Positions 1,998-23,475 are shown, counted from the stretch's first letter. The stretch is 64,000 bases of DNA from a virus (IMGVR_UViG_2541047715_000004); one strand, 5' to 3'. A program made the numbers and translations. Notes: a model not told the origin generated them from the letters alone.

Positions 1998-2167
1998 TTG
2001 TAGGTAGTTATCTATCTGTGTATATTTAACATGCGTAATAAAACTCTGGAATGACTATTCGTTTTGGTGGCCTATGGCCACCATTTTTTTATCTGTCTGG
2101 TCTTGTTCTCTCAATGAATGTAAACTCACACGATGAATAAGTAATTACTTATATTTGTGAGGTTTTT

Positions 2168-3271: not shown

Positions 3272-3272
3272 T

Positions 3273-4803: not shown

Positions 4804-4864
4804 AAATTGTTCGCCTCTTCGACATTGCGACAATAAAACTCTCAAAATGGGTTAAGGATAAAAA

Positions 4865-5284: not shown

Positions 5285-5293
5285 GGAGTTCTG

Positions 5294-5851
5294 ATGACAA
5301 CGATTGTTGCAGGCATCGATATCGAGTCTACGGGACTGGATTTCCTTGCTGGTCATAAAATTATTGAAATCGCAATTACCCGCTATGAACTGGAGACACA
5401 GAGACATATTGATAGTCTGGAGATGCGTTTTAACCCTCGCAGAAACATAGATCCGAAAGCTCAAGCCGTTCATGGCATTTCATTAGAACAGCTCGCAGCT
5501 GAACCTTTGTTGTCAAATCATGCCAGCGAAATTGGCGCTTATATGGGGGCATGTAGTGCGTGGATTGCTCATAACGGCGAAGCGTTTGATATACCATTTA
5601 TTCGACACGAGTTTTCAGGGTATGGAGTAAGACTGCCAGACGTTCCCGTTATAGATACTATGTTATCGGGATTGTGGGCCACAGAAGACGGTAAACGTCC
5701 TCGCCTTGAAGAGTTGGCCTTCTCTCTTGGCTTTATATACGATCATGCCAAAGCACATAGTGCCTTATATGACACAAACTTAATGATGCAATGCTTCTTT
5801 AAGGCACGTAATAAGTACGGATTTTTTAAATTACCCTCTGAAATTGTGTAA
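5294..5851 (+). CDS. DnaQ-like (DEDDh) 3'-5' exonuclease
   Basis: Exo I motif GIDIESTG, Exo III motif HSALYD; 185 aa. Confidence 0.7.
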   Translation: MTTIVAGIDIESTGLDFLAGHKIIEIAITRYELETQRHIDSLEMRFNPRRNIDPKAQAVHGISLEQLAAEPLLSNHASEIGAYMGACSAWIAHNGEAFDIPFIRHEFSGYGVRLPDVPVIDTMLSGLWATEDGKRPRLEELAFSLGFIYDHAKAHSALYDTNLMMQCFFKARNKYGFFKLPSEIV

Positions 5852-6011
5852 AACAAAAGCCTACTTTAAAGAGAGTTTAAAGTAGGCTTTCTTTTAAAGA
5901 ACAGCCGCCTTTCAATCATTTCCTGCCTGTATTTAATACTTTTCCGCCTGATAGGTTTAGTCAAAATGTAGCTATCGAAACGCAAATGTAACCAAGCAGA
6001 AGGAGACTTAC

Positions 6012-6821
6012 ATGAGTTCGGTTGAAAATGTAATGACAAATGATGATCTGGACGAGCTGACAGCCATGTTGCAATCACTTGATGAACCAGTAAAAAAAGC
6101 CGCACAGGTTGAAAATACTGATGATATTGACGATCTGCTGCTCGGCCTCGATGCTGGCGTAGCCATGAGTTCTGATGATGTTGCCGAAGAACTGTTCAAT
6201 GAAGAAAAAGCAGGTGATTTCAGCTCTGCTTTAAATGAGTTGGAGTTAGCGCATGAGCCTATAAACGTAATTAACGCTGAAAGTGTTGAATCTGCCGAAA
6301 ACGAGCCAGAACAATTGGGATTGATTGAGGTTGAAGAGTGTGTTGATGTTAATGATGAATTAAAAGTTCAACAGTCAAATGATAGCAACACAAATAAAAA
6401 AGCGCGTACTGCAAGAGGTCCTCGTTTTACTTTAAGTGATAAAGATGATTCGTTTTTCAATAAAGCAGGCTTAGAAACAGATATTTTCTTAGACGCTTAC
6501 GAAAACGCGCCTGTCAAAGCAAAGGATAAGATATTAAACCTTCTTAATTGGTTTAGCGGAGGTCCAGATATTAGTGTTTACACGGTAATTTCCATGAGAC
6601 ACCTTCTCACAGAAAAGAAGGCTACAAGTAATAGTATTAAGATTGCTTTAATGAGCAATCCAGAAAAACCGTATCCGCTTAACACTGCGTCAACTCAGGC
6701 TGGGCAAATGATGGCTGTATTTCCAGCGACAGGAATTGCCGTTAGAGACGGTGGAAATCTAACATTGAACGAAGAATCACCGATCGTTAAGAAGTTTGTA
6801 GCGGAGTACACTATTGGATGA
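6012..6821 (+). CDS. hypothetical protein with strongly acidic N-terminal half
   Basis: 269-aa ORF; first ~110 aa are D/E-rich. Confidence 0.5.
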   Translation: MSSVENVMTNDDLDELTAMLQSLDEPVKKAAQVENTDDIDDLLLGLDAGVAMSSDDVAEELFNEEKAGDFSSALNELELAHEPINVINAESVESAENEPEQLGLIEVEECVDVNDELKVQQSNDSNTNKKARTARGPRFTLSDKDDSFFNKAGLETDIFLDAYENAPVKAKDKILNLLNWFSGGPDISVYTVISMRHLLTEKKATSNSIKIALMSNPEKPYPLNTASTQAGQMMAVFPATGIAVRDGGNLTLNEESPIVKKFVAEYTIG

Positions 6822-7004
6822 CGTCCCCCTACTGAAAATAAAGCCCATAGAGAGCTTTATAGTGCTGGGTAAGCCAATCACATATCCAGCACCACAAAAA
6901 CGCGCCAGAGAGCTTCTCGTTTGCATTTCTGGCGCGTTTTATTTGATTGCCAGACATAAAATCAAATGCAAAAATAGGTAATCACTTACCTATCGAGAAA
7001 GACG

Positions 7005-7598
7005 ATGATTGCAGCCGAAAAAATCAAACAGCGAAAGCGCGACAACTCTCTTCGTGACCTCTGGAGAACACCTGACTGGCTGTTTTCTGCCATTCAACGT
7101 TATCTTGGAGTGACATTTGATGTTGACGTTGCCTGCAACAAGGACAATGCGAAGCTGCCTAATTTCATAGGCGTTGAGCGTGATGCTTTGAAATCTGAAT
7201 GGGGACAGCCAGGTACAATTGCCTTCCTCAATCCACCCTACTCCAAAATCTCCCCCTGGATTGATGCGGCTATACGTGAGCAGGCTCGCGGAGTTACAAC
7301 AGTGATGCTAATTCCTCAATCCCTCGATACAAAGTGGTATGAGCGTGCAACAGAGTGTGCGAATGAGACGATTATTCTGTCTGGTGGCCGCGTAGCGTTT
7401 GTCGAGCCTGACGTCAATTTGGGTCAGGTAGAAGTAAACATCAACCCCGGTGGCAGTATGCTCGTTGTTTTTCGAGGATTCTGTCAGGACGCTGGGCACT
7501 CTATAAGCAAGATCCCTTTGGACGTCATGAAAAGTCTGGGAGGGTATGATCCTGCGAATGTGATCAGGAAAAAAAGACAATCAAAGAAGGCTGCTTAG
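7005..7598 (+). CDS. dam: phage-type DNA N6-adenine methyltransferase
   Basis: FLNPPYS motif IV; ~200-aa size typical of small phage Dam enzymes. Confidence 0.7.
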   Translation: MIAAEKIKQRKRDNSLRDLWRTPDWLFSAIQRYLGVTFDVDVACNKDNAKLPNFIGVERDALKSEWGQPGTIAFLNPPYSKISPWIDAAIREQARGVTTVMLIPQSLDTKWYERATECANETIILSGGRVAFVEPDVNLGQVEVNINPGGSMLVVFRGFCQDAGHSISKIPLDVMKSLGGYDPANVIRKKRQSKKAA

Positions 7599-7619
7599 TT
7601 TGTTCTGGCGTCTGTAATT

Positions 7620-7685
7620 AGCCTGCTTCTGTATATATAAATAACTACATATTAATTATTAATATACGGAAGCAGGCTGTTTTAT
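7620..7685 (+). terminator. long hairpin (17-bp arms) followed by T-rich tract
   Basis: AGCCTGCTTCTGTATAT ... ATATACGGAAGCAGGCT then GTTTTAT; a second copy with the same arms is at 37341-37393. Confidence 0.5.
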
Positions 7686-7784
7686 ATCAGAGACTCCCAG
7701 ACCTGAACACCACTACAGAATCCACTAGAACCCCTTCCCAGACGCTTTAAAATCGATTTTATGAACCACTTTAAGGAAACCAAC

Positions 7785-8015
7785 ATGTCATACCCGACTA
7801 ATGTCGTTGCGCTCGTAGAGAGCGATTTTCTGGCCCAGGCTCGTGAAATGATGAAAGATCGTGAGCAGGCTTTCAACTTGTACGAATGGGCAATTAAGTG
7901 CTTGCATCTTGGGGAGCATCGCGAACTTGTTGAACAGCTTTTAGGTGAGTTGATCAACGAGGTGTTTGCCTTGAATGTTCAACTACATGGTCGAAAAAAT
8001 AATCAATCGAAATGA
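7785..8015 (+). CDS. hypothetical protein
   Basis: ATG at 7785 preceded by AAGGAAACC. Confidence 0.4.
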   Translation: MSYPTNVVALVESDFLAQAREMMKDREQAFNLYEWAIKCLHLGEHRELVEQLLGELINEVFALNVQLHGRKNNQSK

Positions 8016-8601
8016 TAGATAAGTACAAACTATTCATAAAGTGAATTGTAAGTGCTAAGATCTGATAGTTTCCAGTCGTAGACTGGAGGCTCGACCTGAT
8101 GGGTGGGGGTAAGCGTCACTGGCGTCAGGTTTAAAAAAGCTCACTACCAGCGTAGAACCGGCACCGTTTAGGGGTTGGGGAAGGGGGAACCAAAGTGAGC
8201 AGAGACAAGGGTCACTTTATGATTGTCGAGTCTGGGGTGTTTCGAGAGGTTGAATCCAGTACTCCCCTTCATAAAGTGTGGGAAGATCTCGGTTCTGGGG
8301 TGCTGTCATCCATAACTTCCCAAGCCTAAGCTGGCAGTAGACTTAGGTCATAACTTTTCAGGTTATGAAACGACCAGGTTGGTGAGGAAATTTTGTACTC
8401 ACCTCCCTGGGAGAGTATTACCTGAAAAGACAACCTCTCACTTCGTTCGAGGTGAACTTCACTCACTTCGTTCGTTCAGTTCAGGTTTATAAAAACCTGT
8501 TCTGGGAAGTAATTTGTTTATTTTAATAATTATTAACACGCACGCGTGTGCGCACGCGCGAGGAAAAAAAAATCGGCGCGGCGCTTGATTCAGGAGTTTA
8601 T

Positions 8602-9192
8602 ATGACGACGAAGACACCAGCCCGATCGCAAGCAAAAACTCGCAAAAATGACAAAAACAAAAATTCTCCCCGCACCAATTCCACAACGCCTGTCGTAGAG
8701 TTCAATCCCCAGCTTAAAACCGTGAAAATCTTCAGTGATGGCTCTTGCCTTAAAAATCCGGGTGGCCCGGGCGGTTACGGTATAGTTCTCCAGTATGGTG
8801 GTGAGGAACGCGAGTTCTCAGATGGTTTTCATAGCACCACCAATAACCGCATGGAGATGATGGGGGCACTTATCGGGCTGGAGCGTTTGAAATATCCATG
8901 CAACGTTATTTTGTACTCTGATAGCCAGTATCTGAAAAACGGCATGACACAGTGGATGAAATGGTGGAAACGCAATGGATGGATGACTTCTGACAAAAAA
9001 CCGGTAAAGAATGTTGATCTGTGGAAGCGTCTGGATGAGGCCGCAAGTCGACATAATGTTCGCTGGAAGTGGGTTAAAGGTCACGCCGGGCATCGTGAAA
9101 ATGAAATATGTGATCGACTCGCGAAGATCGCAGCTTTTTCAGCAGCAGATATGCCTCACAAGAAAGATATTGGTTTTGTTTATAACAAGTAG
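8602..9192 (+). CDS. rnhA: ribonuclease HI with basic N-terminal extension
   Basis: [21 protein letters not shown], catalytic core and [11 protein letters not shown]; AGGAG RBS before ATG 8602. Confidence 0.85.
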
Positions 9193-9340
9193 TAAGTAAG
9201 TGTTTACCTATCATTTTAAATCATGTATCTTATCAGCGTCAGGATGACAATGTGTCGGTAAGACACAGTTCCAGGATGGAACGAGAAAGGCGGCTGGCGA
9301 TCGCCAGCCGCAACTCTTTCTGACACTGGATGGAGTCCAC

Positions 9341-9835
9341 ATGGCACGTCAAACCTATTTCACTTCTGCAACTAAACGTCCTCGTTCTTTACGTCAAATT
9401 TTGGCCGAATTGTTTAGCGGTCGTGTTATGTCACGTCTTGATGAACTAGAGACTACCGTTCGGTTGCTGAATGAACGTTTAGATAATCAAGCGTCAGTTG
9501 TTGCGAACGTGGGGGCGATTGTTGCCTCTGGTTCTTCACGCGAAGCGAAAAGTACACGGCCTTTAGTGAAGGAGAAAAACAACAAGGACAGTTCGAATGG
9601 AAAATTTTCAAAGAAAGAGGCTGAAACCAATGGCCTACGTTCTCATTATAGTTTCACTGGCGACGGTAGCCGTTCCAGCCGGCCAGAGCCTTTTGATGCC
9701 GGGTTCATCCATCACCACACCTCCGTCGACGACAATTACCACCACTCCAGTAGAGCGTCCTGTCACTCTGGATGGGATGACGGTGGATGCGATACCTCAA
9801 GTTCATCCAGTTACTCAGGATCATGTTGTGACTAA
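9341..9835 (+). CDS. hypothetical protein (coiled-coil N-terminus; C-terminal part may be out-of-frame read-through)
   Basis: ORF overlaps 9630-9848 in another frame. Confidence 0.3.
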   Translation: MARQTYFTSATKRPRSLRQILAELFSGRVMSRLDELETTVRLLNERLDNQASVVANVGAIVASGSSREAKSTRPLVKEKNNKDSSNGKFSKKEAETNGLRSHYSFTGDGSRSSRPEPFDAGFIHHHTSVDDNYHHSSRASCHSGWDDGGCDTSSSSSYSGSCCD

Positions 9836-9848
9836 GGTGGTTGTATGA
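9630..9848 (+). CDS. hypothetical small membrane/secreted protein
   Basis: Hydrophobic N-terminus MAYVLIIVSLATVAVPA; ATGA overlap with next ORF. Confidence 0.35.
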   Translation: MAYVLIIVSLATVAVPAGQSLLMPGSSITTPPSTTITTTPVERPVTLDGMTVDAIPQVHPVTQDHVVTKVVV

Positions 9849-10033
9849 ACTGGCTTTCAAATCACTTTGGGAAAATTTGGCTGGCAATTCTGGCTCTCAT
9901 GGCCGCCGGTTGGGTATCCAACATTATAAAACTCGTTTGCTCAGGTGATCTCCAGTTTCAGGCTGGCATGACCTTGGCTCGTGTAGTTGGGATTTTTATT
10001 TTTCCAGTCGGTTCGGTACTTGGTTATTTCTGA
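9845..10033 (+). CDS. small membrane protein
   Basis: 62 aa with two hydrophobic helices; translationally coupled to upstream ORF. Confidence 0.4.
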   Translation: MNWLSNHFGKIWLAILALMAAGWVSNIIKLVCSGDLQFQAGMTLARVVGIFIFPVGSVLGYF

Positions 10034-10087
10034 CGGTTGTTAGTGCATATGCATTGACCGTCTTTGCGTAAGCAATTTATGTAACCA

Positions 10088-10104
10088 GAAAACAATTTGT
10101 TTTG
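10088..10104 (+). promoter_or_regulatory. conserved palindrome GAAAACAA-N-TTGTTTT (family 1)
   Basis: About 23-39 bp upstream of ATG 10127; recurs at 10817, 23557, 23608, 26416, 26900, 27804, 28568, 37428, 37455. Confidence 0.5.
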
Positions 10105-10126
10105 ACAAATAGCAAAAGGAAAACAC

Positions 10127-10552
10127 ATGTTAGGTTTCTTCAAAAAGAAAACTCGTAAAGCTGTTATCGAAGTCAAAAAAATGGAGAACCGTGATGCGGT
10201 TGAAGCCACCGTGTGGGGCGGGTACATGATCTCCTATGCCAACGGTACATGCGATGCAAAAGAAATTTCCATTCTTGAGAAAACAATTGCAGCTCTGCCT
10301 GCATTTTCTCCTTTTGCTGGTGAGATTGCCCAGATGAGCGCCAATATCCGCGCTCAATACGAAGCCTCACCGCGCCGTGCTAATGCCCAGGCTTTACGTG
10401 AGCTGGCGGATGTGGCCGGGACTGATGATGCAGTAGATGTACTGTGTCTGTGCCTTGATATTGCCGACCAGGACGGCATTGATGAACCAGAAGAGCAGGC
10501 GCTGAAAAAGATCGCCCAGGCGCTTCAGTTGTCACTGGATGCTTATCTCTAA
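10127..10552 (+). CDS. TerB-like domain protein
   Basis: Pattern resembles tellurite-resistance TerB; C-terminal DQDGIDEPEEQALKKIAQALQLS. Confidence 0.5.
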   Translation: MLGFFKKKTRKAVIEVKKMENRDAVEATVWGGYMISYANGTCDAKEISILEKTIAALPAFSPFAGEIAQMSANIRAQYEASPRRANAQALRELADVAGTDDAVDVLCLCLDIADQDGIDEPEEQALKKIAQALQLSLDAYL

Positions 10553-10710
10553 TGCTTGAGAGATTCCGGCTTGTGACCGTCATTGCTCTTCTGGTGATAG
10601 CGGTGTTGGTGGATTTTACGGGAAAGATGATGTCTGTCATTTCTGATGGCGTCCTCATTGGTCTGGCGATCTACTTCGCTTATCCGCTAGTCCGTAAAGC
10701 AACGTGTTAA
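10552..10710 (+). CDS. small hydrophobic protein (52 aa), coupled to TerB-like gene
   Basis: TAATG stop/start overlap; not in ORF track because shorter than 60 aa. Confidence 0.35.
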   Translation: MLERFRLVTVIALLVIAVLVDFTGKMMSVISDGVLIGLAIYFAYPLVRKATC

Positions 10711-10711
10711 T

Positions 10712-10745
10712 GACAAGGGCCAAATGGCCCTTGTGTTTCGTTGAC
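10712..10745 (+). terminator. rho-independent terminator
   Basis: CAAGGGCCAAATGGCCCTTG followed by TGTTTCGTT. Confidence 0.55.
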
Positions 10746-10816
10746 CGAAATAGAGAGTTTGCACCTTTACGTTTAGCTTGCTCCCCTTTTATGCCACATC
10801 ACAATAAAGCCAATAA

Positions 10817-10833
10817 GAAAACAACTTGTTTAA
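10817..10833 (+). promoter_or_regulatory. family 1 palindrome (GAAAACAACTTGTTTA)
   Basis: 17-33 bp upstream of ATG 10850. Confidence 0.45.
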
Positions 10834-10849
10834 GCATTAGGAAAAACAC

Positions 10850-11419
10850 ATGTGCAAGAAATGCAAAGCGATAGCTGATGAACAAAACGCCTTATTCGAA
10901 GAAATGGATGCTAATGAACTGGTCAAAATGTTAGCCATTCTTCGAGGAATAGAAGACGTTTCCATATTTGAGAGAGTGGTTACAGCACTTAATTTTGAGT
11001 CCACCTTTGAAGAGCCAACTCAGGTTGTAGCTTTAGCACATCATTTCGGTGTTCATTATCTTGCTGAAAAAGAGCGCGCTGATAAGTTGCAGGCGACTTT
11101 GGATATGGTGAGCGAGACTCAACGAACTGATGACACTAACAAGAGTGAGGCGATTATTGCCAGCAAAGATCGTGAAATTGCTGGGCTTAAATCCTCTCTA
11201 ACGATGTTGATGTCTGCGTTCAATCTTATGTCTTCTCAGGCGGGTTATAAAATGCCATCACTAAACAGCGATGATCCGATGGCCGTTCGTCAGCTTTTGG
11301 GAGCAATGGCCGACCAACTCGACGACACAAAGAGTCGCCTTGAAGACATGATGCGTGAGTTAAGCCATCGACATAACCTCGCAACACAACCACACAAAGT
11401 CTTTCAAAGCTCTAATTGA
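10850..11419 (+). CDS. hypothetical protein
   Basis: 189-aa ORF preceded by family 1 palindrome and AGGAAA RBS. Confidence 0.5.
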   Translation: MCKKCKAIADEQNALFEEMDANELVKMLAILRGIEDVSIFERVVTALNFESTFEEPTQVVALAHHFGVHYLAEKERADKLQATLDMVSETQRTDDTNKSEAIIASKDREIAGLKSSLTMLMSAFNLMSSQAGYKMPSLNSDDPMAVRQLLGAMADQLDDTKSRLEDMMRELSHRHNLATQPHKVFQSSN

Positions 11420-11473
11420 TCTGATATGGCCGCATGATCGGCCATATTGTGTTGATAAAAACAAGGGTGAAAA

Positions 11474-11755
11474 ATGGCATACGGTACAGGGATTTACAAC
11501 AATAAAGGAATTAACGTTACTGGCTTCCTTACACCTATTTTTTTTCTTGATCGATTTACGGCGTCATCAGGCTCTAAGACGTACTCTAATCCGCCACCGG
11601 GTAAATCACTACATGCCGTGTGGTCATTAATGCCTCTTAACAACGACAACTACATCAATTTACCTGTTCCAAATGTTACTATTAATGGAAATACGGTTAG
11701 TTGGTCAAATTTATATACGGGGCTTGGTTCTTACATATACACATACTGGGGATAA
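11474..11755 (+). CDS. hypothetical protein (N/G/T/Y-rich)
   Basis: AT-rich ORF. Confidence 0.35.
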   Translation: MAYGTGIYNNKGINVTGFLTPIFFLDRFTASSGSKTYSNPPPGKSLHAVWSLMPLNNDNYINLPVPNVTINGNTVSWSNLYTGLGSYIYTYWG

Positions 11756-11757
11756 TT

Positions 11758-12372
11758 ATGTTCGGGATGTCAATTACTCAATCAGATGGAAGTTTGTGGA
11801 TGAGTCCTGAATTTACTCCGCAAAATCTGATTAATAAAGGGACAATGTCTACATCTAAAGGTTCTGTTTTTCAAACATCAATCCCATCAAACAAATCATG
11901 CTTTTTCTTCATAAAAAGCAGCAATAAGGCGAACATGATGTTTATTCATGAACATAGTAACGGATACAATGCTCTCAGATTGCATCAGGTAAATGGTAGC
12001 CCCGGAACAATAACAGTTTATGCTTTTTCTGATATGGTGTTACCACATTCTGGCTATGGCATTGCCATGTATAACAGCGCAGGCGCAATGGTGTATCACG
12101 GTGAGATGATGCCCCTTGATGCAAAACTTATCACTATTACTGACCCACAATTTACAATAGATATGGGGTATCCGTGCGCAGTAATGCCTGCTATGGTTGG
12201 GGTTTATAACTATAGACGAACCGATTACGACAGACCTGTCTATGTAACTATGACCGGTGCAACTGGAAACCAAGTATATAACGGTCAATGGTATTCCGGT
12301 AATGTCACATGGGATATTAAGAAGATTTATACAAACAAAATCCTGGTTATAAATACCTCAAAGTATGATTAG
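11758..12372 (+). CDS. hypothetical protein (beta-rich, N/Y/G/T-rich)
   Basis: ATG 11758 directly after previous stop; AT-rich. Confidence 0.4.
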   Translation: MFGMSITQSDGSLWMSPEFTPQNLINKGTMSTSKGSVFQTSIPSNKSCFFFIKSSNKANMMFIHEHSNGYNALRLHQVNGSPGTITVYAFSDMVLPHSGYGIAMYNSAGAMVYHGEMMPLDAKLITITDPQFTIDMGYPCAVMPAMVGVYNYRRTDYDRPVYVTMTGATGNQVYNGQWYSGNVTWDIKKIYTNKILVINTSKYD

Positions 12373-12475
12373 CAAATACCTTTATTTAAAGGATTGCCTG
12401 TTAATTTCTATTTAGCACCTTTTCATTTTTGAAATAATTGCACTATTAAACAAATCTTTTCTTAATGGTGCAATT

Positions 12476-12952
12476 ATGAATACAGCTCTTTCCATCATCG
12501 ACGATACCAACTCAAACACTGCTATCGATTATCGTCAGGAAATGAACGTCATCCACGAAATCGTAGCCGAGTGCGAGAAAGAGATCGCCTTCATGTATCA
12601 GGTTCACGACTTCGTTTATGGCGACGAACGCCACAACATGATTAATCGCCTGCTGCAACTGAACCATCGACCAGATGAAGAACGCTCACGTTTGAATCGA
12701 GCTTGGCTGGATAAAGTCGATCTGGAATGGGTGAAACAGAATATTTGGGCCGAGTACTGGAGGAAGGTCACGGATATGACTAACGTTTTGCTGATCATGC
12801 CAGCTTCCCGTCGCGACGAGTGGCGTGAGCAGTTTATAGAGGGCAAACAGGAAGTCATCAAAACTGACAGAACCGGCTACCAGATGAAGGTTAAAGAGTT
12901 CGTTGGTGTACCTGAGTTCAAAGTGGATACAAACATCCCTACGATGGTTTGA
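12476..12952 (+). CDS. hypothetical protein
   Basis: 158-aa ORF convergent with hsdR. Confidence 0.45.
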   Translation: MNTALSIIDDTNSNTAIDYRQEMNVIHEIVAECEKEIAFMYQVHDFVYGDERHNMINRLLQLNHRPDEERSRLNRAWLDKVDLEWVKQNIWAEYWRKVTDMTNVLLIMPASRRDEWREQFIEGKQEVIKTDRTGYQMKVKEFVGVPEFKVDTNIPTMV

Positions 12953-13010
12953 TCTGACAGCTATCTGCAATTTGCACAGATGTCTGCCAGATCTGGTTCA
13001 GATTAATACA

Positions 13011-16000
13011 CTATATCTGCCCACCTACTCCTTTGAACTTTTCAATAAACGTGACGATTTTCTGGAAAACGGTCTGTTTTTTCGTTTTATATTGCGGGTT
13101 TAACGGACTAAGTTTTGGTAATGTCTCGTTTAATTCTGTGCCATTTTCGGTGGCGTATTCGCGTTTTAAAGACGTGCGAATATAGCGTTTCGCCGCCTCT
13201 TCATTGAGATTTTCTTCTTTTATCAATGCTTCTGCTTCACGTTGCTGTTCGCGTTGAGCAAACGTAAAGAATGCCTCAATGATACTGGCTTTGTCTGGTA
13301 AATCATCCAGGTTCGTTTGCTGAATAAAATCGACCACCAGGCCCTCTTTCGCCCGGTTCCCCAGGCTTGAACGAATTAAGCGTTTGACCTCTTCGATCAT
13401 TTCGCCCTTGCCTTTATTTTGTCTGTTGTGTTCGAAAATCAGTCCAAGGATATAATCCAGGTTTATTTCCTGAGACTTCAGCAAATCGACCTCAAAAACT
13501 ACGTCATCCCAGTCAGTGGTTGATTTCTCTTTTTTCTCAGCTTCTTTCTCACGGCGCTGCCAGTCGCGAATATCGTTATAGGCAGAACGATAATCCTGAA
13601 TCTTGCGTTCAGCAGGGAGACGAATTGTTTGCAATTCAGCGAACTTTTCATCATCCACATAATGTTCTGCTTTGAATTTTTCTACCGCAACAGGATCGCT
13701 AAGATCGATTTGTTGCAGGGCTTTCAGCGTGGCAAATTCATCATAGTTTTGCAGGATGTTCTCGGCACGCAGGTATTCACCAAACAGTTTTACGAAGTCT
13801 TTCTTCTCTTTTTCACTTTCAATACTGGCAGGGTCAGGGAACCGTTGTTCCAGTTCTGAAACTACTGCCATAAAGCCGCGTTTAGCTTCACCAGTGGCAG
13901 CATCTGTAAAGCCTTCCATATACTCAGCATAACTCTTTTCTAACACCACATTTTTAGTATTTTTATCACCAAACAGCGTTATGGCATCAATGGTTGAGCG
14001 TTCCAGATCCCGAAAAGTGACGATGTTACCGAAGGTTTTAGTAGCGTCATAAATGCGGTTGGTACGGGAGAATGCCTGCATCAGGCCGTGAAAACGCAAG
14101 TTTTTATCGACGAATAGCGTGTTCAATGTTGGAGCGTCGAAGCCGGTTAAAAACATCCCAACGACAATTAACAGATCGATATCCTGATTTTTAACCCGTT
14201 GGGCTAAATCACGATAGTAGTTCTGAAAACCGTTACTGTCGGTGCTGAAGTTAGTTTTAAAATAGCTGTTATACTCACGAATTGCAGCGTCAAGAAACTC
14301 TTTAGCACTGCTGTCCATTGCGCTGGTATCAAAAGTTTCATCGGAAATTTCACCAATGGCATTTTGTTCTTCATTGGCGGCAAAGGAGAAGATTGTTGCA
14401 ACACGCAGCGGTTTATAGGTAGCCGATTTATTAGCTGCTTCCTCTTGTAACCGTTTAAACGTCGCGTAATAGGCTTTCGCGGCATCCACGCTACTCACTG
14501 CCAGCATGGCATTAAAGCCTTTGGAACCTGGGAAAGTACGGTGGGTCTTCTGGCGGAAGTTATTCAGAATATATTGCGTAATTTCCTGTATACGCATGGG
14601 ATGAAGAAATGCCTGCTGATTTTCAGCCGCACTCAGTTTTTTCTCGTCGGTTTCTGTCTCTAAAGATTTAAACTGTGGCCGCACATCGTTGTAGTCCACC
14701 TTGAATTTGAGCACTTTTTCATCACGAATCGCATCGGTAATTACATACGAATGCAATTCACGACCAAATACGCTGGCGGTCGTTTCTGAGCCTAAGGCGT
14801 TTTCCGGGAAAATAGGTGTGCCGGTAAAACCAAACTGATAATAGCGTTTGAATTTCTTCTTCAGGTTTTTCTGCGCTTCTCCAAACTGGCTGCGGTGACA
14901 TTCATCAAATATAAACACCACTTGCTGATTGTATACAGGCAGGTCGCTTTCTGCTTTCATCAGGTTATTAAGTTTCTGAATAGTGGTGACGATAATTTTG
15001 TTATCGTCCTTATCCAGATTGCGTTTAAGACCTGCGGTATTTTCCGAGCCGTTGACGCTGTCTGGCGAAAAACGCTTATATTCATTCATGGTCTGGTAAT
15101 CGAGGTCTTTCCTGTCGACCACGAAGAAGACTTTATCAATAAAGTCCAGCTCTGTTGCCAGACGCGCGGCTTTAAAGCTGGTGAGGGTTTTACCTGAACC
15201 GGTAGTGTGCCAGATATACCCACCGCTTTCCGGTTTTGACCAGTTCTTCGCTGTAAAGGAACTCTTAATTTTCCACAGAATGCGCTCAGTGGCGGCAATC
15301 TGGTACGGTCGCATCACCAGTAGCGTTTGGCTAACATCGAATACGCTGTAGTTCACTAAGACATTAAGCAGGGTATGTTTCTGGAAAAAGGTGGCGGTAA
15401 AGTCTTTGAGGTCTTTAATCAGCGTGTTGTCTGATTTCGCCCAATTCATGGTGAAGTCAAAACTGTTTTTATCGCGCTTTGTCGTGTTGGCAAAGTAACG
15501 GGTATCGGTGCCGTTGGAAATGACAAACAGTTGCAGATACTTAAACAGAGAATTTTCGCTGTTAAAACTCTCTTTGCTGTAACGATGTATCTGGTTAAAG
15601 GCCTCACGAATCGCCACGCCGCGCTTTTTCAGTTCGATTTGTACCAGCGGTAAGCCATTAACCAGGATCGTGACGTCATAACGGTTAGCATGAGAACCCG
15701 TCTGTTCAAACTGCTGGATAATCTGCACCTTGTTGCGCATGAGATTCTTTTTATCTATCAAATAGATGTTCTCAAGACGCTCGTCATCAAAAATAAAGTC
15801 GCAAATATAGTCGATATGGATTTTACGGGTCTTATCCAGGATGCCATCGCTCGGGTTATCCAGATACTGCTCCGTGAAACGCCGCCATTCGCTGTCATTA
15901 AACACCACACCATTGAGGTTCTGAAGCTGTTCCCGAACGTTGGCCAGCATCGCCGACTGAGATTTTACGGAAATAAATTCATAGCCCTGATTCCGCAGAT

Positions 16001-16127
16001 CCTGAATCAGTTCACGTTCCAGGTCCGATTCGCTCTGGTAGCTGTCGCCTGTTTGCTCGGCTTTGATGTACTTATCAAGAACGATAAAGTTATTGGATTC
16101 AGCAATGGTGTGTGTCTGATGAGTCAT
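13011..16127 (-). CDS. hsdR: type I restriction enzyme R subunit, type IC (EcoR124-like)
   Basis: 1038 aa; Walker [13 protein letters not shown]-box FDECHRS, helicase motifs; N-terminus [20 protein letters not shown] matches my recollection of EcoR124 HsdR. Confidence 0.95.
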
Positions 16128-16248
16128 AGCGCATCCTTTGTGCCGTCTGGCAAGGGCCGGAAGGGCTTTAAGGGCGACTTCCGGCGTGTAAAAAATAGTC
16201 TCTATATAGACCGGATGTTAAGGTGATCCGGTCGGTAGCAATGGTCAA

Positions 16249-17496
16249 TTAGTTACTGATAGTTTCAGGTTTGGGAAAACTGAACAGTAAATCACGATAG
16301 TACTCGTATTGTTTCTGGCGCAACTCGATTTCACGCGGAAGACCTTCGGTGATGGAATTGGTCAAAGCATCAAATTTATCCAGTAATTTCACTATTTTTT
16401 GTTGTTCAACTAGCGATCTTTCAGGAGAATCAGGAAATGGTACTGGTATCATAAGTTTTCTTAAGTTATCATTATAAAGTCTTTTAATAGTTCCACCTTC
16501 AGATATTCCCCATTTTGCTATTTTATAGAAATAGAATAAATATTTATTTAAAACTATTTTTTCATTATTTTCAATCCAGACAATATTGCTATCCTGGAAA
16601 TATGATTCCCTACCATCAAATATAACAGTCCTGCCGATGGTCCCACTGGCAGAAATCAATACTTCGCCAACTTTAGGATAACTATATTTTTCTTTAAATT
16701 CATTAAATAGTTTTCTAGATATATAGGAATCGGGTTCCTTACCAAATGTCCCAATTTTATAAAATGGAATCTCTCCCTCAGAAGATGTTTGTGATTTTAG
16801 GATTCGTTTACACATACGAACTTCACCAATTTCCCCCAAAGCTTTCCACTCAACCTCACCCTCTTTAAAACTCAACAACTGGTCGCGATAGTAGTTGTAT
16901 TGTTTTTTACGCATGCTAAGCTCAGCGGTAAGCTCAGCGGTAAGTGCAGTAAATTTATCCAGAATCCTGACGATTTCAGACTGGATAGCCAGCGACTTTT
17001 CCGGGTTGTTGGGGCAAGGGATGGGGATAAGTAATTTACCTATATCTTTAGCATACAAATGATAAACAGTAGAACCTTTAACCATTTGCAATATCTTTTT
17101 TTTGTTATTTATTATGAAATTACTTAGATATCTACCATCAACACCAGAGCATCTAATAATCAAAATATCGCCGCCTAAAATAACGCCACTTTCTTGAATG
17201 CAACTAGCTGTAGCCAAACCTCTTGGTGTAACGTCTGACGTTGGCATTAGAACATCATTTTTTTCAGATAGAATTGACTCATTGATTGCTTGGTTTGTTT
17301 TTGAGCATACTTTGTCAATTATGGGACCATAATGAGTGAAAAGCTCACCGTAATGAATACAATATCTATTGCCATCTGGAGTTATTTTTTCTTTAGGTAA
17401 AGACTTCCCTTTTAAAAAAGTTGCTAATTTATTTAATGCTACCCACTCAACCTCAGCCCCATCCAGCAGTTTTTCCAGATAACTCAGCTCGCTCAT
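16249..17496 (-). CDS. hsdS: type I R-M specificity subunit, type IC with two divergent TRDs
   Basis: Conserved N-terminal, central ([29 protein letters not shown]) and C-terminal ([41 protein letters not shown]) regions; AT-rich variable TRDs. Confidence 0.95.
16918..16941 (-). repeat. 2 x 12-bp tandem repeat in hsdS central region, encoding TAEL-TAEL
   Basis: + strand AAGCTCAGCGGT twice, then a degenerate third copy. Confidence 0.85.
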
Positions 17497-19055
17497 GCCT
17501 GTACCTCGCTACCTTCAATCTCAGCAACAATCGCATCAATATCTTTACGCAACTGGTCGATTTTGCTGACCGTGGTTTTCAGCTCAGCATTCAGCTCAGC
17601 GATATCGATAATTTCGCGAGTATCTTTCGCTTCCACATAGCTGCTCACCGACAGGTTATAGTCATTCGCGACAACAGTCTCAAACGCAACAGATTTCGCC
17701 AGATGAGCAACATCTTCCTTGCTGGCAAATACCTGCATAATCTGTTCGATATGAGCATCGGTCAGAATGTTGTTGTTAGTCTCTTTTTTGAACAGTTCGC
17801 TGGCATCAATAAACTGAACTTTGGTATCCGTTTTATGTTTAGACAGCACCAGAATATTGACGGCAATAGTGGTGCCAAAGAACAGATTCGGTGCCAGTGA
17901 AATCACGGTTTCGACATAGTTATTGTCGACCAGATACTGACGGATTTTCTGCTCCGCGCCGCCACGGTAAAAAATGCCTGGGAAGCAGACAATCGCAGCG
18001 CGACCTTTGGCCGAAAGATAGTTCAGCGCATGTAATACAAACGCAAAGTCAGCTTTGGATTTGGGGGCCAGAACGCCAGCCGGGGCAAAACGTTCATCGT
18101 TAATCAGCGTCGGGTCATCGCTGCCAATCCATTTCACCGAATACGGCGGGTTAGAAACGATGGCATCAAACGGTTTTTCATCTCTGAAGTGCGGCTCAGT
18201 CAGTGTATTACCCAGCTTGATATCAAACTTGTCGTAGTTGATGTTGTGCAAAAACATGTTCATACGCGCCAGGTTATAGGTCGTATGGTTGATTTCCTGA
18301 CCAAAAAAACCTTCTTCGATGATATGGTCATCAAACTGTTTTTTCGCCTGCAACAACAGCGAACCGGAGCCTGCTGCCGGGTCGTAGATTTTGTTAACGT
18401 GGGTCTGCCCGTGCATAGCCAGTTGTGCAATCAGCTTAGAGACGTGCTGCGGTGTAAAGAACTCGCCGCCGGACTTACCGGCATTCGCCGCATAGTTAGA
18501 AATCAGGAACTCATAGGCGTCACCGAACAGGTCAATCTGATGTTCATGGAAGTCACCAAGTTTTAGCCCTTCAACCCCTTTCAGAACCGCAGCCAAGCGG
18601 GCATTTTTATCTTTAACGGTGTTACCCAGGCGGTTACTGGTGGTATCGAAATCAGCAAACAAACCTTTGATGTCAGCTTCTGAAGGATAACCGTAAGCAG
18701 AACTTTCGATAGCAACGAAGATGCTGTTTAAATCTGCATTCAGTCTGTCATTAGTATTTGCTTTCGCAGCTACGTTGCAGAAAAGCTGACTGGGGTAGAT
18801 GAAGTAGCCTTTAGTTTTGATGGCATCGTCTTTAATGTCATCAGTAATTACGCTGTCATCCAGTTTCGCATAACAGATACTGTCATCACCGGCTTCAATA
18901 TAACTGGAAAAATTTTCGCTGATAAAACGGTAAAAAAGCGCGCCCAAAACGTACTGCTTAAAATCCCATCCATCGACTGAACCCCTGACATCGTTAGCAA
19001 TTTGCCAGATCTGGCGATGAAGCTCTGCACGTTGTTGAATACTTGTCATTTTCAT
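17493..19055 (-). CDS. hsdM: type I R-M N6-adenine DNA methyltransferase subunit
   Basis: 520 aa; motif [14 protein letters not shown]; stop overlaps hsdS start (ATGA). Confidence 0.95.
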
Positions 19056-19407
19056 CCACTTATTTCAGGTTTAAGTAATTGGATGTGATTCTACAGCAAC
19101 TTGGATGCTTTAGCAGTTCGGACATTAGGTAACGAATGACCTAATTAGAGCTTTTTGGAAAAGCGGTATTGTCGGTGCGATTTTAGCTATGTCTGGGTGT
19201 GCGATGGTGCAATACAATGACGGTGAAAAGGTTAGCATCCAGTTCGATGGCTGGTATTGGCTTGGATAGCCTGCCAAAAAACGCAGATAAAGCCTGTCAG
19301 CAATACGGAAAGTCTAAAGCTGTATATCTGCATAGCGCGAACGCTAACCCTCATCTTGCGCCTGGTACGGGTGTTCAGAATACCATCTGGAAATGTGAGC
19401 CTTAAAC

Positions 19408-19659
19408 ATGAGCAACTGGAACATAGCAGCCAAAAGCCAGGAAGAAAGGAATAAAGTTAACGTTGACCTGGCTGCCAGGGGGGTTGCCTACAAAGAGCGA
19501 TTGAACATACCCGTCATAGCGGAACAGGTAGCCCGTGAGCAACCTGAGAACCTGCGCACCTATTTCATGGAACGGCTACGGCACTACCGGCAGTTAAGCC
19601 TCCTGCTGCCAAAAGGAAACGATCCGGTATATCAGAAAGAAGATATAGCCAAAAAATAA
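19408..19659 (+). CDS. hypothetical protein
   Basis: 83-aa ORF between hsdM promoter region and UmuD'-like gene. Confidence 0.4.
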
Positions 19660-19719
19660 CGCGCCACCAGACGAGCGCAAAGCATCGCGCTATTGCACAC
19701 TTCAAGCATCTTTAATGTA

Positions 19720-19739
19720 TACTGTATGGATAAACAGTA
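19720..19739 (+). promoter_or_regulatory. LexA operator (SOS box)
   Basis: TACTGTATGGATAAACAGTA fits CTGT-N8-ACAG; 19 bp upstream of ATG 19758. Confidence 0.65.
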
Positions 19740-19757
19740 CTCTGAGGTGAAAACGCT

Positions 19758-20147
19758 ATGGGCTTCCCTTCTCCTGCGGCGGATTATGCTGAGAGCCGTA
19801 TTTCTCTTGATCAGCAGATAATTAGACATCCTTCAGCGACCTACTTCATGAGGGCAGCTGATAGTCATCATCGTGAGGGAATATTACAGGGTGCATTGCT
19901 GGTGGTCGATTCCTCACTTACCCCGGTTGATGGTTCTCTGCTTGTATGCGCTCTGGATGGGGAATATCGCGTAAAAAGATACCGGAAGTACCCACGTCAG
20001 CATCTGGAGGATTTAAGAACCGGTAAGAAGGAAGCATTGCCAAAGGATGACGATGGATGCACGGGCAGCAATGCCGTGTTTGGTGTGATCACTCACATTA
20101 TCAACGACGCAAGAAGTGGCGAGTTTGATGATTGTCCCGTGATGTAG
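19758..20147 (+). CDS. UmuD'-like S24 peptidase-fold protein lacking the cleavable N-terminal arm (HumD-like)
   Basis: Starts MGFPSPAADY, equivalent to UmuD residue Gly25; Ser (ADS) and Lys (RVKRY) dyad positions conserved; GAGGTG RBS. Confidence 0.7.
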   Translation: MGFPSPAADYAESRISLDQQIIRHPSATYFMRAADSHHREGILQGALLVVDSSLTPVDGSLLVCALDGEYRVKRYRKYPRQHLEDLRTGKKEALPKDDDGCTGSNAVFGVITHIINDARSGEFDDCPVM

Positions 20148-20158
20148 GAGAACTGATT

Positions 20159-20184
20159 AGGCGGTGCAATGCACCGCCTTTTAT
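20159..20184. terminator. bidirectional terminator between convergent UmuD'-like gene and apbC
   Basis: AGGCGGTGCAATGCACCGCCT followed by TTTAT. Confidence 0.6.
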
Positions 20185-21284
20185 CACACTGCGCGGAATG
20201 CGATTTCGCCAGGTATTACTTCACCTTGCCAATACATTTGGGCGGCAACGCGATCTGCGAGGTCACGATAAATAGCCGTAAATTCGCTATCTGGACGACT
20301 AATAACGGTTGGTGTTCCGTTATCCAGATCTTCACGAAGAGAGATATGAAGTGGCATTTGGCCTAACAACTGCGTGTTGTATTTCTCGGCCAGTTTCTGT
20401 GCGCCACCGGTGCCAAAAATTGGCTCGTGATGACCGCAGTTACTGCAAATATGCACACTCATGTTTTCGACGATACCCAGTACCGGCACTTCGACTTTTT
20501 CGAACATCACAATGCCTTTCTTCGCATCGATCAGCGCGATGTCTTGCGGCGTAGTTACCACAACCGCACCAGTTACAGGAATGTTCTGCGCCAGCGTCAA
20601 CTGAATATCACCAGTGCCCGGCGGCATATCGAGAACGAGATAGTCCAGATCAGGCCATAGAGTTTCCTGCAACATCTGCATCAGCGCCTTGCTGGCCATC
20701 GGTCCACGCCACACCATTGCATTGTCGTCGGTGACCAGATAACCAATAGAGTTGGTTGCCAGGCCATGAGACATGATAGGTGCCATGTGAGTACCGTCAG
20801 GTGAGGTTGGACGTTGGTTTTCCGCGCCCAGCATGGTTGGAATTGATGGACCATAGATATCGGCATCCAAAATACCAACTTTCGCACCTTCAGCAGCCAA
20901 CGCCAGTGCCAGGTTTACCGCCGTGGAGGATTTACCCACGCCGCCCTTGCCTGAGCTGACGGCGATAATGTTCTTAACGCCATTAATGCCTGGTTGGTTT
21001 TTGACGCGCTTAAGCGTGGCAATGTTGTACGACAGCTTCCAGTCAATAGCCTTTGCGCCAGTGATACGGAGCAGATCACCACTACATTGCTCTTTCAGGT
21101 CTTCAAAAGGCTTATTCCACACGAAAGGCATGATTAGTTCGACATGCAGTGTGTCATCCATCAACGCAACATGGTGTAACGCTTTAAGCGTAGTCAGGTT
21201 GTGTTTCAGGGTTGGGTGCTGAAAATTAGCCAGCGTACCGGCTACCATTGCTCTCAGGGCATCCGGCGATTTGGACTCGCTCAT
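20184..21284 (-). CDS. apbC: Fe-S cluster carrier ATPase ApbC/Mrp
   Basis: 366 aa, GKGGVGKS P-loop; near-identical to E. coli Mrp as I recall it. Confidence 0.95.
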   Translation of the reverse strand: MSESKSPDALRAMVAGTLANFQHPTLKHNLTTLKALHHVALMDDTLHVELIMPFVWNKPFEDLKEQCSGDLLRITGAKAIDWKLSYNIATLKRVKNQPGINGVKNIIAVSSGKGGVGKSSTAVNLALALAAEGAKVGILDADIYGPSIPTMLGAENQRPTSPDGTHMAPIMSHGLATNSIGYLVTDDNAMVWRGPMASKALMQMLQETLWPDLDYLVLDMPPGTGDIQLTLAQNIPVTGAVVVTTPQDIALIDAKKGIVMFEKVEVPVLGIVENMSVHICSNCGHHEPIFGTGGAQKLAEKYNTQLLGQMPLHISLREDLDNGTPTVISRPDSEFTAIYRDLADRVAAQMYWQGEVIPGEIAFRAV

Positions 21285-21441
21285 CCCGTCTCCTTTATTT
21301 TAATTTGCGCAATTGTCGCCTTGTAGTGTACTCCAGCTACGACATTTAATCATTTATGAGAAATGCTGTTATCACATGGCAGACATAAGGCCATTTTGTT
21401 ACTATCAAGCCCCTTTTCACTACAAAGAAGTAATGCCTACT

Positions 21442-23475
21442 ATGACCCAAGTCGCGAAGAAAATTCTGGTGACGTGCGCGCTGCCGTACGCTAACGGCTC
21501 AATCCACCTCGGCCATATGCTGGAGCACATCCAGGCTGATGTCTGGGTTCGTTACCAGCGAATGCGCGGCCACGAGGTTAATTTCATCTGTGCCGACGAT
21601 GCCCACGGTACGCCGATCATGCTGAAAGCACAGCAGCTTGGTATCACACCGGAGCAGATGATTGGCGAAATGAGTCAGGAACACCAGACTGATTTCGCAG
21701 GCTTTAACATCAGCTATGACAACTATCACTCGACGCACAGCGAAGAGAACCGCCAGCTGTCTGAGCTTATCTATACTCGCCTGAAAGAGAACGGTTTTAT
21801 TAAAAACCGCACTATCTCTCAGTTGTACGACCCGGAAAAAGGCATGTTCCTGCCGGATCGTTTTGTGAAAGGCACCTGCCCGAAATGTAAAGCGCCAGAT
21901 CAATACGGCGATAACTGTGAAGTCTGCGGCGCAACATATAGCCCGACTGAATTGATCGAGCCGAAATCGGTGGTTTCTGGCGCTACCCCGGTAATGCGTG
22001 ATTCCGAACACTTCTTCTTTGATCTGCCTTCTTTCAGCGAAATGTTGCAGGCATGGACCCGCAGCGGCGCGTTGCAGGAGCAGGTGGCGAACAAAATGCA
22101 GGAATGGTTTGAATCCGGCCTGCAACAGTGGGATATCTCCCGAGATGCGCCTTACTTCGGTTTTGAAATTCCGAACGCGCCGGGCAAATATTTCTACGTC
22201 TGGCTGGACGCGCCGATTGGCTACATGGGTTCCTTCAAGAATCTGTGCGACAAACGCGGCGACACTACCAGCTTCGACGAATACTGGAAGAAAGACTCCA
22301 CCGCCGAGCTGTACCACTTCATCGGTAAAGATATCGTTTACTTCCACAGCCTGTTCTGGCCTGCCATGCTGGAAGGCAGCAACTTCCGCAAGCCGACCAA
22401 CCTGTTTGTTCACGGCTATGTGACGGTGAACGGCGCGAAGATGTCCAAGTCTCGCGGCACCTTTATTAAAGCCAGCACCTGGCTGAATCATTTTGACGCC
22501 GACAGCCTGCGTTACTACTACACTGCGAAACTCTCTTCGCGCATTGATGATATCGATCTCAACCTGGAAGATTTTGTTCAGCGCGTGAATGCCGATATCG
22601 TGAACAAAGTGGTTAACCTGGCCTCCCGTAATGCAGGTTTTATCAACAAACGTTTTGACGGCGTGCTGGCAAGCGAACTGGCTGACCCGCAACTGTACAA
22701 AACCTTCACTGATGCCGCTGAAGTGATTGGTGAAGCGTGGGAAAGCCGCGAATTTGGCAAAGCTATCCGTGAAATCATGTCACTGGCTGACCTGGCTAAC
22801 CGCTATGTTGATGAACAGGCTCCGTGGGTGGTGGCGAAGCAGGAAGGCCGCGATGCCGACCTGCAGGCGATTTGCTCTATGGGCATTAACCTGTTCCGCG
22901 TGCTGATGACGTACCTGAAACCGGTACTGCCGAAACTGACTGAACGTGCAGAAGCATTCCTGAATACAGAACTGACCTGGGATGGTATCCAGCAACCGCT
23001 GCTGGGCCATAAAGTGAATCCGTTCAAGGCACTGTATAACCGTATCGATATGAAACAGGTGGAAGCACTGGTGGAAGCATCCAAAGAAGAAGTGAAAGCC
23101 ACAGCTGCACAGGTAACTGGCCCACTGGCTGACGACCCGATTCAGGAAACCATCACCTTTGACGACTTCGCCAAAGTTGACCTGCGTGTGGCGCTGATTG
23201 AAAACGCGGAGTTTGTCGAAGGTTCTGACAAACTGCTGCGTCTGACACTGGATCTCGGTGGTGAAAAGCGTAATGTCTTCTCAGGCATCCGTTCTGCTTA
23301 TCCAGACCCACAGGCACTGATTGGTCGTCACACCATTATGGTGGCTAACCTGGCTCCGCGTAAAATGCGCTTCGGTATCTCCGAAGGCATGGTGATGGCT
23401 GCTGGCCCCGGCGGGAAAGATATCTTCCTGTTAAGCCCGGATGCTGGTGCTAAACCAGGCCACCAGGTTAAGTAA
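21442..23475 (+). CDS. metG: methionine--tRNA ligase
   Basis: 677 aa from ATG 21442; HLGH and KMSKS motifs; near-identical to E. coli MetG as I recall it; divergent from apbC as in E. coli. Confidence 0.95.

Follow-up and report, generated by a model that had tools for sequence, protein, structure and literature searches.

Type I restriction-modification (R-M) systems fall into families that are defined by complementation, antibody cross-reaction and sequence. The closest described relatives of the locus presented here, EcoR124I and EcoR124II, belong to the thoroughly studied type IC family and ride plasmid R124, a conjugative plasmid. Here we analyze a type IC operon, hsdM-hsdS-hsdR, at positions 13011-19055 of IMGVR_UViG_2541047715_000004, a viral stretch of 64,000 nucleotides that is referred to below, at its full length, as the window. 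By sequence criteria, the locus is very probably a complete and functional R-M operon of the EcoR124 family that is carried as accessory cargo by an SSU5-like Escherichia coli phage-plasmid, and genes identical to it are already annotated in many public records.

EcoDXXI, EcoprrI and the laboratory hybrids EcoDR2 and RD2 share one principle with the system in the window, whereby a constant scaffold holds swappable target-recognition domains (TRDs) and the number of TAEL repeats sets the spacer between the two half-sites (PMC3874165). Hybrid TRDs give hybrid specificities in type IC enzymes (PMC3874165). In EcoR124I and EcoR124II the repeat number likewise sets half-site spacing: a step from two copies to three turns the GAA-N6-RTCG target of EcoR124I into the GAA-N7-RTCG target of EcoR124II, and the two forms interconvert in the laboratory (PMC3874165). 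EcoDXXI and EcoprrI each carry three TAEL repeats (PMC3874165), whereas the window allele has two, as does EcoR124I. Type IC systems establish themselves efficiently in naive hosts; cleavage requires that a second HsdR join the R1M2S1 intermediate, a control that does not depend on ClpXP (PMC3874165, PMC12707154). Restriction alleviation in this family is based on assembly, and hemimethylated DNA is not a preferred substrate of the methylase (PMC12707154). Defence genes, R-M systems above all, pass between phage-plasmids and plasmids (PMC10879196), and a P1-like element that gained a type I system has been described (PMC6906374).

Operon layout and comparison with EcoR124

The original prediction for this DNA placed an EcoR124-family type IC operon at 13011-19055, and coordinates, homology and domain content all agree with that assignment. 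Mapping of open reading frames (ORFs) returned three intact genes on the minus strand, with the same ends as first proposed. The hsdM gene (17493-19055) encodes a type IC N6-methyladenine (m6A) methyltransferase subunit of 520 residues, for which the RefSeq version has 518 residues and a start at 19049; hsdS (16249-17496) encodes a specificity subunit of 415 residues that is identical to WP_001293038.1; and hsdR (13011-16127) encodes a translocase/endonuclease subunit of 1038 residues. The gene order, hsdM-hsdS-hsdR, is that of EcoR124I/II. As in type IC systems generally, hsdM and hsdS are coupled, here by a coding overlap of 4 nt, and hsdR stands apart.

The space between hsdS and hsdR (16128-16248, minus strand) is a putative separate hsdR promoter, by analogy with EcoR124I, where hsdR has its own promoter. 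It contains a weak sigma-70-like match from 16221 to 16192, which is a match to the consensus only. The region upstream of hsdM (19056-19154, minus strand), part of which travels with the operon elsewhere, is the presumed promoter region of hsdM-hsdS. No prrC-like gene lies within the operon, where the hsdS-hsdR gap measures just 121 bp.

Pfam and PADLOC together return the complete domain set expected of a type IC system, with HsdM_N and N6_Mtase in the hsdM product, two Methylase_S domains in the hsdS product, and HSDR_N, SWI2_SNF2, a T1R_D3-like domain and EcoR124_C in the hsdR product. Motifs are intact in both catalytic subunits: HsdM has NPPY at 302 and DPAAGSG at 225, and HsdR has D151/E165/K167, TGSGKT at 309 and DECH at 408. 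These cover the SAM-binding and NPPY motifs of the methyltransferase as well as the PD-(D/E)xK nuclease and DEAD-box motor motifs of HsdR. The HsdR catalytic positions are those that we take to correspond to EcoR124I, whose residue numbering was used to assign them.

Alignment to the solved EcoR124 proteins bears out the near-identity of HsdM and HsdR to the R124 enzymes that the original prediction had put forward. HsdR matches EcoR124 HsdR (PDB 2w00) without gaps over residues 1-1038 (2274 bits), with 15 substitutions counted across the first 1010 residues of the alignment (~98.5% identity). HsdM matches the EcoR124 M protein (7bst_D) over residues 1-519 with 5 substitutions (1151 bits, ~99% identity). 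Alignment to these structures reveals no frameshift in hsdM or hsdR. Hidden frameshifts, which had been named as a risk, are ruled out by alignments that run essentially end to end, and both genes are full length.

For HsdS, pairwise alignment agrees with the earlier view that the conserved parts are EcoR124-like and both TRDs are different. Similarity of the protein to the EcoR124 S subunit (7bst_A) is confined to residues 1-28, ~154-224 and ~351-415, and the two stretches between these segments, which are the TRDs, align poorly. Both TRDs of EcoR124I are unrelated in sequence to those of the window. The overall layout is that of type IC subunits, with conserved N-terminal, central and C-terminal segments, two TAEL repeats and two variable TRDs; the ends of HsdS lie within the second conserved helix, as type IC organisation requires, and internal DNA repeats connect the conserved portions of the gene. 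At 415 residues, the window protein is longer than the 404-residue HsdS of EcoR124I, and it has seven additional residues, FPDSPER, where TRD2 meets the C-terminal helix. The carriers differ as well, in that the window operon rides a phage-plasmid and EcoR124 a plasmid. Because HsdM and HsdR are 98-99% identical to their EcoR124I counterparts, subunit complementation and antibody cross-reactivity with EcoR124I would be expected.

Predicted function and self-protection

By homology to EcoR124I, hsdM and hsdS would be co-translated through their 4-nt overlap and their products would form an M2S1 methylase. This complex would methylate one adenine per strand of a bipartite target, with TRD1 reading the 5' half-site and TRD2 the 3' half-site. 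The joining of HsdR, for which a separate promoter is probable, would then give R2M2S1, a complex expected to translocate and cut DNA bearing unmodified targets. Cognate methylation would protect both the lysogen and the element itself, and virion DNA from a carrier cell would already be modified. Entry into a naive host would be tolerated through efficient methylation of unmodified DNA and through the cleavage-incompetent R1M2S1 intermediate. The original prediction had seen a puzzle in how the element protects its own DNA. That puzzle falls away, in that the cognate M2S methylase would modify element and host alike, and the assembly control of type IC systems covers naive hosts.

The spread of these genes argues for maintained function, since exact copies of HsdS, HsdM and HsdR each occur on at least 1000 public contigs. 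Three points weigh against a working R-M system. Expression, methylation and restriction are all predictions from sequence; promoter-like consensus matches are weak and, in the region as a whole, no more frequent than in shuffled sequence; and HsdR carries ~15 substitutions relative to the crystallized protein, none of them within a known motif.

If these points were decisive, the operon would be silent or methylase-only, either as a decaying passenger or with a restriction arm lost to missense changes or to a failure of hsdR expression. Such a reading would take, besides the weak promoter matches, the divergent mosaic patch in HsdR (~14700-15919) relative to a sibling plasmid as a sign of decay, and decayed copies do exist elsewhere: in CP059946.1 hsdS is 4 nt shorter and no S gene is annotated, and the S genes of ET729 and HCP6S3_I1 are split. 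Nevertheless, the window has three full-length ORFs with intact catalytic motifs, and identical proteins on at least 1000 contigs, distributed over several replicon types, are unexpected for a decaying gene set. We therefore regard a silent or methylase-only operon as highly improbable and favor a complete system that would both modify and restrict.

Target-recognition domains

Within hsdS, on the minus strand, TRD1 occupies 17038-17430 (residues 23-153) and is assigned to the 5' half-site, and TRD2 occupies 16447-16824 (residues 225-350) and is assigned to the 3' half-site. The central conserved coiled-coil between them (16825-17037, residues 154-224) is near-identical to residues 140-210 of EcoR124 HsdS. 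Both TRDs are AT-rich, as had been noticed at first reading, with 32.3% GC for TRD1 and 29.6% for TRD2 versus the 44-46% of the scaffold (hsdM 45.8%, hsdR 44.0%, central conserved part of hsdS 45.1%). Since both TRDs differ from those of EcoR124I, the predicted target must differ from GAA-N6-RTCG.

The original prediction went further, and held that the TRDs were novel and implied a new recognition sequence. The difference from EcoR124I stands, but the TRDs themselves lack novelty: RefSeq already lists the exact HsdS as WP_001293038.1, with the contig count given above, and each TRD recurs in many combinations. Of 5426 complete E. coli genomes, 1268 have a match to the type IC hsdS scaffold, 45 to TRD1, 59 to TRD2 and 39 to the full hsdS allele. 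The allele is found at full length in 31 plasmid records, and it is 100% nucleotide-identical in 24 listed plasmid records and in at least 30 listed E. coli genome records.

A full-length search, of which the best 120 cluster representatives were inspected, reveals how freely these modules combine. In this set the TRD2 class occurs with ~22 N-terminal TRD classes and the TRD1 class with ~12 C-terminal TRD classes, and a TRD2-type module stands at the N-terminal position in two relatives, P0289 being one, which indicates domain movement between the two positions. Particular replicons carry such combinations. TRD1 is joined to two other C-terminal TRDs in pCP53-113k, whose SSU5-like backbone resembles that of the window, and in the chromosome of a chicken isolate, and TRD2 is joined to another N-terminal TRD in the P1-like pC21-4. 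Relatives of TRD2 at 76-84% identity occur in many taxa outside enterobacteria, and relatives of TRD1 outside E. coli reach 50-63%. An HsdS from Methylophaga sp. (P0287) is 78% identical to the window protein over its full length, with 69% in TRD1 and 83% in TRD2.

The TRDs are thus common, widely reshuffled modules already present in many public E. coli genomes, and the hsdS allele, as far as these comparisons go, represents one of the combinations that a large pool of exchangeable TRD modules supplies. Such natural TRD reassortants correspond, in the field, to the hybrids engineered from EcoR124I and EcoDXXI.

Two of the relatives have an additional feature. The HsdS proteins of pCP53-113k (L007 5935-7254) and of E. 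coli Z1323CEC0001 (L009 5935-7191) have a 14-residue insert in the central region. This insert is a second copy of the conserved motif at the N terminus, as though the C-terminal half had brought its own N-terminal linker with it when it was grafted.

How far the specificity itself might be new is a related issue. In its strong form, novelty would mean that the TRDs are new to science and that the system combines a conserved scaffold with a recognition sequence not seen before. The two TRDs bear no resemblance to those of EcoR124I, and when solved structures were searched for TRD relatives, EcoR124 alone matched HsdS at E <= 0.001. The searchable literature on type IC enzymes, E. coli methylomes and related phage-plasmids assigns no motif to WP_001293038.1 or to WP_094310829.1, its three-copy variant described below. 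The best 120 relatives in each homologue search (with HsdS, TRD1 or TRD2) include no named characterized enzyme, names being sparse there. A plasmid-borne E. coli type I system with a known motif, EcoST101IX/Eco067II (CCAG-N6-RTTG; family not confirmed), resides on pIP1206, which is missing from the TRD1 and TRD2 match lists; it was ruled out as a TRD-sharing relative, as pIP1206 shares neither TRD at megablast level.

Set against these points are the RefSeq entry for the exact HsdS, its presence on 1000 contigs or more and in 39 of the complete E. coli genomes, and the many partner classes of either TRD. Carriers also include strain series whose long-read methylomes are routinely in REBASE, for example AR_0137, and Eco067II from AR_0067 provides a precedent. 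We consider it unlikely that the TRDs are new to science. Because HsdS and its TRDs are widespread, including in strain series that are routinely methylome-sequenced, and have many partner classes, the half-sites are very likely assignable already from existing methylome data. The motif is itself likely to be already recorded, since several carriers of the allele are long-read-sequenced reference strains. The preferred interpretation of the allele therefore remains a specificity different from that of EcoR124I, built from common TRDs.

TAEL repeat number and the predicted spacer

The central region of hsdS contains two copies of the 12-bp repeat ACCGCTGAGCTT (16918-16941, minus strand), which encode TAEL-TAEL at HsdS residues 186-193. 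Because a change in TAEL copy number shifts the spacer in EcoR124I/II, the window enzyme is predicted by analogy to methylate adenines 7 bp apart, as EcoR124I does, and siblings with three copies are predicted to recognize the same half-sites 1 bp further apart, with adenines 8 bp apart. Two considerations count against the 7-bp value: it extrapolates from EcoR124I, II, DXXI and prrI to different TRDs, and the seven extra residues at the junction of TRD2 and the C-terminal helix could affect spacing.

The three-copy variant, WP_094310829.1, is present in three backbones, and in each it has a near-identical sibling with two copies. The SSU5-like pair (three-copy L004 versus two-copy L003) differs by 1 mismatch over 17.3 kb compared, the IncFIA/IncR pair (L012 versus L013) by 3 mismatches over 13.3 kb, and the P1-like IncY pair (L014 versus L011) by 3 mismatches over 8.9 kb. 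Three repeats are found in ~4-5 of the 31 full-length plasmid copies of hsdS. Because each of the three backbones has both forms as near-identical siblings, the repeat copy number would have changed at least three times independently, or the variant would have been moved by very short conversion tracts. We found no survey of natural TAEL variation in the literature, and a paper on repeats in type I genes mentions the idea as a hypothesis only (PMC7383803). The recurrent natural change in repeat number, a predicted spacer switch of the EcoR124I/II type, is the sole point of this analysis that is mildly new.

These data raise the question of whether the repeat is a selected contingency locus, with flips between two and three copies frequent enough to act as a specificity or epigenetic switch through which sibling elements or lineages would restrict one another, as opposed to a site of occasional neutral slippage. 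Siblings that are otherwise 99.8-99.9% identical differ in repeat number in three independent backbones, three-copy alleles make up the share of plasmid copies noted above, and the same interconversion was seen between EcoR124I and EcoR124II (PMC3874165). Conversely, only two or three 12-bp units are present, for which a low switching rate is expected, and 114 of the 120 related cluster representatives have two copies and none has three, although clustering at 90% identity would hide three-copy variants. On balance a selected contingency locus seems quite unlikely, and such a reading is in any case compatible with, and not opposed to, a complete type IC operon as described above. A less demanding proposal, in which the TAEL repeat is a naturally recurrent and functional specificity switch (same half-sites, spacer N versus N+1), flipped independently in three or more lineages of plasmids and phage-plasmids, that sets near-identical elements against each other, is a real possibility but one that we advance tentatively, considering it somewhat doubtful.

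Probable exchange of the hsdS allele between replicons

The hsdS gene is identical at 1248 of 1248 nt in SSU5-like plasmids, IncFIA/IncR plasmids, a chromosomal island and P1-like IncY phage-plasmids. The IncFIA/IncR carriers are 64-68 kb in size and their operon adjoins phd/doc, and the operon on the chromosomal island adjoins Ag43. For the F/R-type plasmid and the chromosomal island, homology to the window is confined to the operon, extending from the hsdR stop (13011) to 6-100 bp upstream of hsdM; it ends at 19154 for the IncFIA/IncR plasmid (L005) and at ~19061-19072 for the chromosomal island (L006). The P1-like IncY plasmid pRHB27-C18_2 is 98.8% identical to window positions 13011-19405 and has the identical hsdS.

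Comparison of the four backbones with the window reveals a mosaic, in which hsdS has no mismatch and hsdM and hsdR differ by up to 2.4% and 4.2%, respectively. The mismatch-free tract around hsdS extends from 18153 to 16207 in the IncFIA/IncR plasmid, from 18210 to 14070 in the chromosomal island and from 18489 to 13944 in the P1-like plasmid. A mosaic in which the ends of the identical tract differ is what allele replacement would produce if homologous recombination took place in the conserved hsdM and hsdR sequences on either side, and the hsdS allele appears to have moved in this way among type IC operons that were already resident. In the sibling SSU5-like plasmid NZ_OW849379.1, all 52 mismatches in the operon are located within ~14700-15919, a patch of ~1.2 kb in the N-terminal half of hsdR, which indicates a separate short recombination tract inside hsdR.

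Host element and the variable block

The window has collinear nucleotide homology to phages and phage-plasmids of the SSU5 group, with both the structural modules and those for replication and nucleotide metabolism included, on which basis it is assigned to the SSU5-like E. coli phage-plasmids. Positions 1-13000 are 96.7-98.4% identical over 99% of their length to phages Cyrano, CMS-2020a and PhiR41_1, and positions 19056-44000 are 95.5-97.5% identical to the same phages over 64-89%. Identity to Salmonella phage SSU5 is ~77-82%. Across the block that contains the operon, 110-kb non-mobilisable IncFIB plasmids such as NZ_OW849379.1 match the window at ~99% identity.

The operon belongs to a variable accessory block of ~6.7 kb (12953-19717) that comprises hsdR-hsdS-hsdM, a small frameshifted ORF and hot. 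Cyrano and PhiR41_1 are homologous to the window up to 12923 and again from 19718 or 19706, and at the corresponding slot those phages have a gene for a 561-residue DUF4942 protein followed by Ea22/Eaa/Eae-like genes. A truncated remnant of the DUF4942 gene (12476-12952, plus strand, 158 codons) is cut at the left junction of the block, and its 158-residue product is 97% identical to the first 158 residues of the 561-residue CYRAN_90 of Cyrano. RefSeq marks the matching remnant in the sibling pCP53-113k as a partial pseudogene. SSU5-like phage-plasmids seem to use the DUF4942/Ea22 slot as a site for swapping accessory genes. A search for inverted or direct repeats around the 6.7-kb block gave none above chance, and on this ground an insertion sequence or transposon origin was rejected in favor of recombination.

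At the right end of the block, divergent from hsdM, lies a hot-like gene (19408-19659, plus strand) that encodes a homolog of the DNA polymerase III theta subunit (Pfam DNA_pol3_theta, E = 2e-31). It is part of the variable block and not of the SSU5-like backbone, Cyrano and PhiR41_1 having no hot at that position. Matches to P1 across the hot-humD stretch (~19417-19760) average 89% identity. In pRHB27-C18_2 the hot gene, which is likewise divergent from hsdM, is 94.7% identical to the window (19402-19648), and the humD-like gene is 87% identical (19709-20146).

Type IC hsd genes on phage-plasmids are known from further P1/P7-like elements, namely pC21-4, pWP5-S18-ESBL-08_2 and pMCR_SCKP-LL83 in addition to pRHB27-C18_2, and from phages phi456 and vB_EcoM-673R5; P1-like phage records also bear type IC hsdS genes, and some P1/P7-like relatives have other TRDs or three TAEL repeats. 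In the P1-like elements, the backbone is IncY and the operon is located between a 3'-phosphatase gene and hot-lxr-humD-phd-doc. In contrast, the window has an SSU5-like IncFIB backbone, its operon replaces part of the DUF4942 gene together with the Ea22-like genes, and hot abuts the humD-like gene. In a P7-like mcr-1 plasmid, the slot that the operon takes in P1-like elements is described as occupied by an EcoR124-like type I system, left without a name, that includes an 'EcoR124II R protein' (PMC5786510).

Most likely, P1-like and SSU5-like phage-plasmids exchanged the hsd-plus-hot block. Such an exchange would have one end in the LexA-box/humD region that both groups share and, within the DUF4942 gene, an illegitimate junction as its other end. 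The LexA-box/humD site may be a recombination joint shared with P1-like elements, since backbone homology to Cyrano resumes exactly there. The direction of transfer limits how far this account goes, as movement from P1-like to SSU5-like elements and the reverse are both compatible with the data.

Several neighboring features were recorded alongside the block. A near-consensus LexA box, TACTGTATGGATAAACAGTA, is located at 19720-19739, upstream of an ORF at 19758-20147 (plus strand) that encodes an S24-peptidase/HumD (UmuD')-like protein, the humD-like gene being 87% identical to its P1-like counterpart. Upstream of hot, the small ORF at 19189-19405 (plus strand) is split by a frameshift into a 26-residue piece ending in DGWYWLG and a 68-residue frame ending in NTIWKCEP; the N-terminal piece has a lipoprotein-like signal (…ILAMSGC), and an intact 74-residue version is present in the P1-like pRHB27-C18_2 (L011 6093-6317).

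The backbone contributes further cargo. An ORF with a strong, full-length match to Pfam Flag1_repress (FljA-like phase-1 flagellin repressor, E = 1e-68) at 30928-31449 (minus strand) represents a regulator of host motility, which is unexpected on a phage-plasmid. Near-identical plasmids and Cyrano are annotated with an ApbC/Mrp-like (MinD-like) ATPase gene at the equivalent of 20184-21284 (minus strand) and, at 21313-23475 (plus strand), with a full-length metG for methionyl-tRNA synthetase, which is unusual cargo for a temperate phage. In the early region, 10127-10552 (plus strand) encodes a protein with a TerB-like (tellurite resistance) domain, annotated in sibling plasmids as a tellurite/colicin resistance protein. 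A Dam-type methylase gene (PF05869) is located at 7005-7598. It was rejected as a part of the type IC system, being a backbone gene ~5.4 kb from hsdR, and relatives without the R-M block also have a methylase gene in that part of the backbone. It is unrelated to the type IC system, to which it has no evident connection.

Discussion

The locus is a clean illustration of three processes in a well-characterized family. First, hsdS alleles and single TRDs are reassorted by homologous recombination within a constant hsdM/hsdR scaffold. Second, one cassette circulates among P1-like and SSU5-like phage-plasmids, F-type plasmids and chromosomal islands. Third, one slot of the SSU5-like backbone serves as a site at which accessory genes are swapped. 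In strains that harbor these common phage-plasmids of 110 kb, the system is likely to act as a restriction barrier to transformation and infection.

The two-copy and three-copy alleles form a natural pair for testing, with TRDs unlike those of EcoR124, the effect of coiled-coil length on the geometry of type I targets. If the two forms fail to cross-protect, near-identical sibling phage-plasmids would restrict each other's DNA, which, if true, would document in the field that R-M can make clonemate mobile elements incompatible.

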